DNA of 64,000 nucleotides from Escherichia phage REP4, in sequence record OQ174503.1, one strand, 5' to 3'. The position numbers and the translations under genes were made by a program. Below the pieces are notes generated by a model. That model worked only from the letters and a program-made list of their open reading frames with translations. It was not told the origin of the DNA and ran no database searches. Shown here one piece after another: positions 48,501 through 49,316 of this stretch. Every line of letters begins with the position of its first letter. The first letter of the stretch is position 1.

Positions 48501-49316
48501 ACTGTTAATGGTGATTGGAATAGTAAACGTCCTTTCGCAATTAACTTAACAACCGGCGAAGTGATGATGAATAATGGCATAGCTGTTCGCAGCGCTGCTT
48601 TATTCTATAATAGCATAAACGTCAAAGATAATGGTTCTATTAACTTTGATAAATCAGGTGCTAACCCGAGAAATATGAGAATATTTCATGCTGGCGATGC
48701 TTCTCGCGGTAACCGCATTGAAATTGCAGATGAAACTAACTATATTGCTTACTTTGAAAAGACTCCAGGTGGAGCTAACCGCTTTGTAGTAAATAATGCT
48801 ACTGTAGCTGGTGTTAACCAAATGAATTCATTTGGTATTAATATCAATAACGCACTTGGTGGAAATAGTATAGCATTTGGTGATAATGACACTGGAATTA
48901 AACAATCCGGTGACGGACTTCTTGATATTATTACTAACGCCGCACGCCGAATGAGATTCCAGACAGGTGACACCTATTCTGACATGAATATAAACGCTCC
49001 AAACGTTTATATTCGTTCTGATATTCGTTTGAAATCTAATTTCAGACCTATTGAAAATGCTCTTGAAAAGGTTGAACAGCTTGATGGTTTAATCTATGAT
49101 AAAGCTGACTATATAGGTGGTGAAATTGTTCAGACTGAAGCGGGTATTGTGGCTCAAACACTGCAAGATGTTTTACCAGAAGCAGTTCGTGAAGTTGAAG
49201 ATATTAAAGGTAATAAAATACTCACTGTTTCTTCTCAATCCCAGATTGCTCTTCTAGTTGAAGCTGTGAAAACACTTTCTGCTCGTGTAAAAGAACTTGA
49301 ATCTAAACTTATGTAA
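45528..49316 (+). CDS. 37: gp37 long tail fibre distal subunit, T2-type with C-terminal intramolecular-chaperone-like domain
   Basis: 1262 aa, [36 protein letters not shown]...; C-terminal RSDIRLK...[15 protein letters not shown]...ALLVEAVK motif. Confidence 0.95.
   Translation: [1262 protein letters not shown]

Follow-up and report, generated by a model that had tools for sequence, protein, structure and literature searches.

Gene 37 and its surroundings

A stretch of 64,000 nucleotides from Escherichia phage REP4 (sequence record OQ174503.1), referred to here as the window, was analysed. The DNA is that of a Tequatrovirus, and the nearest record is Escherichia phage vB_EcoM_SA20RB, which is 96.5% identical over 25 kb. 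Locally, the genes run in the order g35 (43676–44791, assigned from position alone), g36 (44854–45519), g37, g38 and the holin gene t (50170–50826). The gene 37 ORF is 3789 bases or 1262 codons long and encodes a precursor of 135.6 kDa, which matched the PHROG family 'long tail fiber protein distal subunit' (PHROG 1699) with an E-value of 5e-298. Pfam gp37_trimer and Gp34_trimer domains were found in the shaft, upstream of the C-terminal domain considered here. This domain is encoded by the last 300 bases of the ORF (49017–49316), which specify S1164 to M1262 and the stop codon. The Ser1164 codon starts at base 49017 and the stop codon lies at 49314–49316; the domain comprises the last 99 of the 1262 residues, at the extreme C-terminus of gp37. 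In-frame translation of these bases gave exactly the C-terminal peptide quoted in an earlier note on this DNA. Coordinates are collected in Table 1.

Table 1. Coordinates of features in and around the 3′ end of gene 37
Feature	Position	Strand	Evidence
Long tail fibre distal subunit gp37	45528..49316	+	ORF, PHROG 1699, Pfam gp37_trimer, Gp34_trimer, Peptidase_S74
C-terminal ten residues of the predicted mature fibre (aa 1154–1163, ending NAPNVYIR); putative gp38 docking strand	48987..49016	+	Identical in T2
SDIRLK motif with predicted nucleophile Ser1164 and general base Lys1169	49017..49034	+	Translation, alignments, PMC4690869, PMC7917993
Peptidase_S74 profile stretch (aa 1164–1221), including the GIVAQ...VLPEAV motifs	49017..49190	+	Pfam PF13884, E 8.5e-14
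Whole predicted intramolecular chaperone (aa 1164–1262, 99 aa, 10.9 kDa)	49017..49313	+	Translation and end-to-end alignment
Predicted long C-terminal helix (aa 1236–1261)	49233..49310	+	AlphaFold model residues 103–128, pLDDT about 80
Stem-loop GAGGGC-UUCG-GCCCUC with UUCG tetraloop, in the g37–g38 gap	49318..49335	+	Terminator-like match; RNA fold −13.4 kcal/mol, z −2.4
Gene 38, T2/S16-type adhesin (263 aa)	49347..50138	+	Pfam GP38 E 5.5e-69, Gp38_N E 7.3e-18, PHROG 2056 E 4.4e-101, 6F45_D E 2.1e-47
gp38 N-terminal attachment domain (aa 1–42), with W9 and W22	49347..49472	+	Pfam Gp38_N E 7.3e-18

Gene 38 begins 30 bases past gene 37. Its product, encoded directly downstream of gene 37, is a gp38 of the adhesin type, the type characterised by glycine-rich motifs and a PGII sandwich. 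Two tryptophans in its attachment domain, W9 and W22, are matched in the alignment by Trp residues of S16 gp38 (6F45_D). The S16 residues are described in PMC7917993 as prongs entering pockets of the cleaved gp37 tip. Most of the 30-nucleotide gap between the two genes is filled by a hairpin of seven base pairs, which is followed by AAGGA and then by the ATG at 49347. This hairpin may attenuate or stabilise the g37–g38 transcript, or modulate translation of g38. In the related record LR990704 a terminator is annotated at the hairpin between g37 and g38.

No T4-type late promoter motif (TATAAATA) was found between g36 and the end of g38, including the chaperone coding region, and this points to joint transcription of g36, g37 and g38. 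The nearest such motif is at 44823–44830 on the plus strand, 24 nt upstream of the start of g36. In the window as a whole the motif is not enriched, with 10 occurrences found against 9.3 expected. Matches to sigma-70-like promoters inside the domain were weak (9 of 12 positions). A search of the whole window against Rfam at gathering thresholds returned nothing, in or near the domain or elsewhere. Minus-strand ORFs of at least 50 amino acids overlapping 49017–49308 were absent; a 52-amino-acid minus-strand ORF at 49309–49467 shares only the last 8 bases with the domain region and was treated as mechanical.

A Peptidase S74 domain at the C-terminus of gp37

The earlier note had read the C-terminus of gp37 as an S74, or intramolecular chaperone, domain, and the profile search that it proposed as a check was clearly positive. 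Pfam PF13884 (Peptidase_S74, 'Chaperone of endosialidase') matched residues 1164–1221 with an E-value of 8.5e-14 and a score of 52 bits against a gathering cut-off of 22, and model positions 1–58 of 58 were covered. The E-value and the full-length profile match rule out a chance resemblance of motifs. All 99 residues align end to end with the C-termini of the fibre proteins of T2, S16, T5-like and other phages. NCBIfam contained no model for gp37 or gp38. When the 99 residues were used in a tblastn search, matches were obtained in 1656 of 50,697 phage records, 1628 of them covering at least 80% of the domain. The matched records come from phages of Escherichia, Salmonella, Klebsiella, Vibrio, Synechococcus, Aeromonas and others. 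The S74 module is widespread and well annotated among phages, and some records give it the name 'chaperone of endosialidase'.

A homologue search of the protein database yielded 14 proteins, mostly short fragments. PF13884 was present in 13 of the 14. A 176-amino-acid ENA protein (P0007) shares 91% identity with the query across just 36% of its length and carries PF01594, not PF13884; a chimeric short contig or a fusion may be its origin. In the phage homologues the domain likewise lies at the C-terminus. It ends a Synechococcus phage 'baseplate wedge subunit' (a CDS of about 1950 aa), a hypothetical protein of a Pseudomonas jumbo phage, and the tail fibre of Stx2 phage 86, where a 'tail fiber adhesin' gene comes next. 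A layout of fibre, S74 domain and downstream adhesin may also exist outside the T-even phages.

Two alignments were used to examine conserved positions. One (A1) contained metagenomic homologues, with a profile built from 13 of them; the other (A2) contained sequences from T2, a Salmonella Tequatrovirus, a T5-like phage, a cyanophage, a Pseudomonas jumbo phage, Stx2 phage 86 and an Aeromonas phage, to which those of S16, GA-1 and 8JOV were added. Neither A1 nor A2 shows any variation at the Asp and Lys of SDxxxK or at the G, A and Q of GxxAQ. All sequences but one keep the Ser of SDxxxK, the exception having Cys, and full-length members show almost no variation in the LP(E) and LLVEA.K motifs. 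Of the motifs that the earlier note had listed as hallmarks, SDxRLK, LPEAV and LLVEA.K are present in gp37, but GxIAQ has to be corrected, as the sequence here is GIVAQ and the invariant columns are GxxAQ. The SDIRLK motif at the start of the domain, containing Ser1164 (49017–49019) and Lys1169 (49032–49034), aligns to SDRRIK in S16, SDERHK in GA-1 and SDERLK in 8JOV. In the gp12-like 'tail collar fiber protein' of Aeromonas phage Aes508 (L007:121-432), Cys occupies the nucleophile position (VRCDARLK) and the Asp and Lys(+5) are kept; this may be a self-cleaving domain of a thiol type.

The position of cleavage was predicted by alignment. In T5 pb1 the Thr1263–Ser1264 bond is cut, Ser1264 being activated by Lys1269, and the S1264A change blocks cleavage (PMC4690869). 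The spacing of Ser1164 and Lys1169 in gp37 is the same, with the Lys at +5, and the released GA-1 chaperone chain (3GUD) begins at SDERHK, its first residue aligned to Ser1164. The predicted scissile bond in gp37 is therefore R1163–S1164, between bases 49016 and 49017 (NVYIR^SDIRLK). The residues VYIR^SD match those at the cleavage site predicted for the T4-like fPS phages, DVYIR^SDGRLKI (PMC7917993), and those of phage pSe_SNUABM_01. The counterparts of the tip strand before the bond, DVYIR in fPS phages and DLNVS in S16, are described as a docking strand in PMC7917993. In T5 pb1, trimer formation is sensed by an Arg from a neighbouring chain and by an Asp (Arg1250/Asp1239), and by the proposed mechanism a like Arg/Asp coupling operates in K1F endosialidase (PMC4690869). 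An attempt to place the corresponding upstream residues in gp37 by their spacing relative to T5 failed; the positions in T5 and K1F are not transferable, because the domain that precedes the chaperone in gp37 is not homologous to theirs. Cleavage at R1163–S1164 would give a mature gp37 of 1163 residues and 124.7 kDa, and a fragment of 10.9 kDa.

Reportedly, the original work on T2 by Drexler et al. in 1986 showed the processing of gp37 but did not identify the protease, and the domain might be removed in trans by a host or phage protease. Such a protease is highly improbable: the Ser/Lys(+5) pair is conserved, a Ser-to-Ala change in the substrate itself blocks cleavage of recombinant homologues in E. 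coli (PMC4690869), and the same domain cleaves itself in the eukaryotic protein MyRF, whose structure 7DC3 is a family match. Autoproteolysis is thus the reading adopted below.

The solved structures most similar to the domain belong to the same family. A single-sequence search of the PDB matched S16 gp37 (6F45_A, E 1.5e-10) and, weakly, the ICA domain of MyRF (7DC3). With the A1 profile the matches were 6F45_A (1.3e-18), the 8JOV tail fibre (2.1e-13), 7DC3 (4.8e-10) and 3GUD (0.0032). An AlphaFold2 model of residues 1134–1262, computed as a monomer, had a mean pLDDT of 62.6. The value was about 80 over most of the domain, only 50–60 around residues 1184–1203, and below 50 for the 30 residues before the domain and for its start up to about residue 1170, including SDIRLK; the quality of the model is limited because the alignment is shallow. 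The modelled fold consists of short helices and strands followed by a C-terminal helix of 26 residues. This helix likely forms the trimeric coiled-coil of the chaperone, to judge from the model; the T5 chaperone has a central coiled-coil (PMC4690869). When the model was compared with the PDB using Foldseek, three chains of 7DC3 ranked first (best E 8e-5, about 1e-4; probability 1.0; TM about 0.5), followed by five chains of 3GW6, the K1F endosialidase 'Intramolecular Chaperone' (best E 0.036, probability 0.95), and no unrelated fold ranked above these two. The modelled fold is compatible with the solved chaperone domains, which we regard as supportive rather than strong evidence, because a single chain was modelled, whereas the domain functions as an intertwined trimer.

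A conserved joint between variable modules

Comparison with T2 showed that 87 of the 99 residues of the domain are identical (88%), as are all ten residues that precede it (aa 1154–1163). Between the two phages the domain has a dN/dS of 0.12 (dS 0.54, dN 0.067), and it is therefore under purifying selection as a protein. Similarity to T2 and K3 at the nucleotide level starts exactly at 48987 (the region compared with T2 was 48987–49490). Identity to T2 is 80–97% in residues 1154–1262 of gp37 and 93–97% in residues 1–45 of gp38, whose first 48 residues are nearly identical to those of T2 gp38, whereas it is 10–60% in the gp37 shaft and 23–47% in the C-terminal receptor-binding loops of gp38. 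On these sequence comparisons the tip strand, the chaperone and the gp38 attachment domain make up a conserved joint between two variable, exchangeable modules. A lock-and-key pattern of this kind was described by Trojet et al. (PMC3157838). Since the shaft and the gp38 loops differ, the host specificity of this phage is probably unlike that of T2.

These data also bear on whether the domain might be an inactive S74 relic that stays on the virion as a structural knob at the C-terminus. Both catalytic residues, the Ser and the Lys, are intact, and the dN/dS value indicates that the domain is maintained. The C-terminus of T2 and T6 gp37 is cleaved and then capped by gp38, according to PMC3157838, which cites Drexler, Riede & Henning (1986); the T2 homologue, at 88% identity, is thus processed. 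In the S16 model (PMC7917993), the surface on which gp38 docks becomes accessible only through cleavage, and the neighbour of gene 37 here encodes a gp38 of the matching type. A retained relic is for these reasons scarcely credible.

It is also conceivable that the released 11-kDa chaperone trimer has a second role, such as handing gp38 onto the exposed tip. A role of this kind would account for the conservation, at 80–97%, of tip, chaperone and gp38 N-terminus as a block between diverged modules. Lock-and-key co-variation (PMC3157838) is a simpler explanation of the same block, and we consider the second role very unlikely.

Predicted processing of gp37 and comparison with known systems

Residues 1164–1262 of gp37 very probably constitute an S74 C-terminal intramolecular chaperone, which would nucleate folding of the trimer, cleave itself off and leave, so that gp38 could dock. 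Homologues are our basis for inferring, in this phage, that cleavage happens, at which bond, that the domain serves as a chaperone and in which order the steps occur, as follows. The chaperone domains, by means of the coiled-coil of their C-terminal helices and their alpha/beta part, would bring three gp37 chains into register and nucleate folding of the distal fibre. Once the trimer was correctly folded, Lys1169 would activate Ser1164, and each chain would cut its own R1163–S1164 bond. The chaperone of about 11 kDa would then dissociate and be absent from the virion, leaving a mature gp37 of 1163 residues that ends ...NAPNVYIR. Finally, monomeric gp38 would cap the exposed tip of the trimer via its Trp-bearing N-terminal attachment domain and go on to recognise the host receptor. 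That the distal fibre is processed at its C-terminus before gp38 binds, as the earlier note predicted, is the established model for this type of fibre; by homology it would apply here as well, because of the near-identity to T2, the alignment with S16 and the T2/S16-type gp38 encoded downstream.

For S16, functional fibres are said to have required co-expression of gp57A and gp38 as well, and the domain may for that reason not suffice as a chaperone. It could instead be an S74 homologue that is indeed removed, but that serves mainly as a temporary cap masking the gp38 docking tip, with folding dependent on gp57A and/or gp38. Fibre proteins of the T4 type (gp12, gp34 and gp37) depend on separate chaperones (PMC4690869; PMC3157838), and the single conserved block of tip, chaperone and gp38 N-terminus fits a role at the docking site. 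Moreover, the chaperone is small, at 99 residues compared with 133 in T5 (PMC4690869) and 113 in S16 (PMC7917993), and may lack the long beta-hairpin 'tentacles' with which the T5 chaperone embraces the fibre (PMC4690869). In the members that have been studied, however, the domain is described as required for folding of the trimer (PMC4690869 and references in it). Sequence does not separate the capping and folding roles, and they are not mutually exclusive. We regard a mainly capping role as unlikely, and retain the intramolecular chaperone as the function of the domain.

The S74 feature of gp37 is already known in every respect that could be assessed here, and is textbook biology for T2-type fibres. 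No new biology is involved, since T2-type gp37 was recognised as a processed protein in 1986, and the structure of the S16 gp37–gp38 complex supplied the structural basis. The value of the finding lies mainly in correct annotation and in engineering. Virion gp37 would be annotated as residues 1–1163, followed by a 99-residue propeptide, and any swap of receptor-binding modules in this phage would have to treat the tip strand, the S74 domain and the N-terminal domain of gp38 as one unit.

Among known systems, S16 (PDB 6F45) has the same arrangement of fibre tip, SDxxxK motif and chaperone, with a gp38-type adhesin docking on the cleaved tip. The last 113 residues of S16 gp37 are autocleaved after trimerisation at DLNVS^SDRRIKK, exposing the gp38 docking surface (PMC7917993, citing Dunne et al. 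2018). The S16 domain differs in being longer and only about 22–30% identical, and the scissile Ser is preceded by another Ser in S16 but by Arg here. T5 pb1 shares the Ser/Lys(+5) pair, the GxxAQ...LPE motifs and the C-terminal helix, and a T5-like homologue aligns over the whole gp37 domain at 35% identity. Unlike the domain in gp37, however, the larger T5 chaperone has beta-hairpin tentacles of 50 Å, and after cleavage the tip of the T5 fibre is itself the receptor-binding part (for O-antigen), whereas in the present phage gp38 would be loaded onto the tip as a separate adhesin. The chaperones of K1F endosialidase (3GW6, the founding Peptidase S74 member) and of the neck appendage of Bacillus phage GA-1 (3GUD) belong to the same Pfam family as the gp37 domain, but their identity to it is low; the proteins that bear them are a tailspike or an appendage, whose functions are enzymatic or of another kind, and cleavage there is not followed by the loading of an adhesin.

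The T4 genes 37 and 38 correspond in position to those described here, and the N-terminal part of T4 gp37 is homologous. To our knowledge, T4 has neither an S74 domain nor a cleavage step. In T4 the receptor-binding tip is part of gp37 itself; T4 gp38, an unrelated protein, acts as a chaperone and is released once assembly is complete (PMC3157838, PMC12892980). The closest system is T2, with which the present phage shares the gene, the genus Tequatrovirus, the order g37–g38–t and a near-identical gp38 attachment domain. The gp37 shaft and the gp38 receptor-binding loops have diverged from those of T2, but in the processing module there is no meaningful difference between the two phages.
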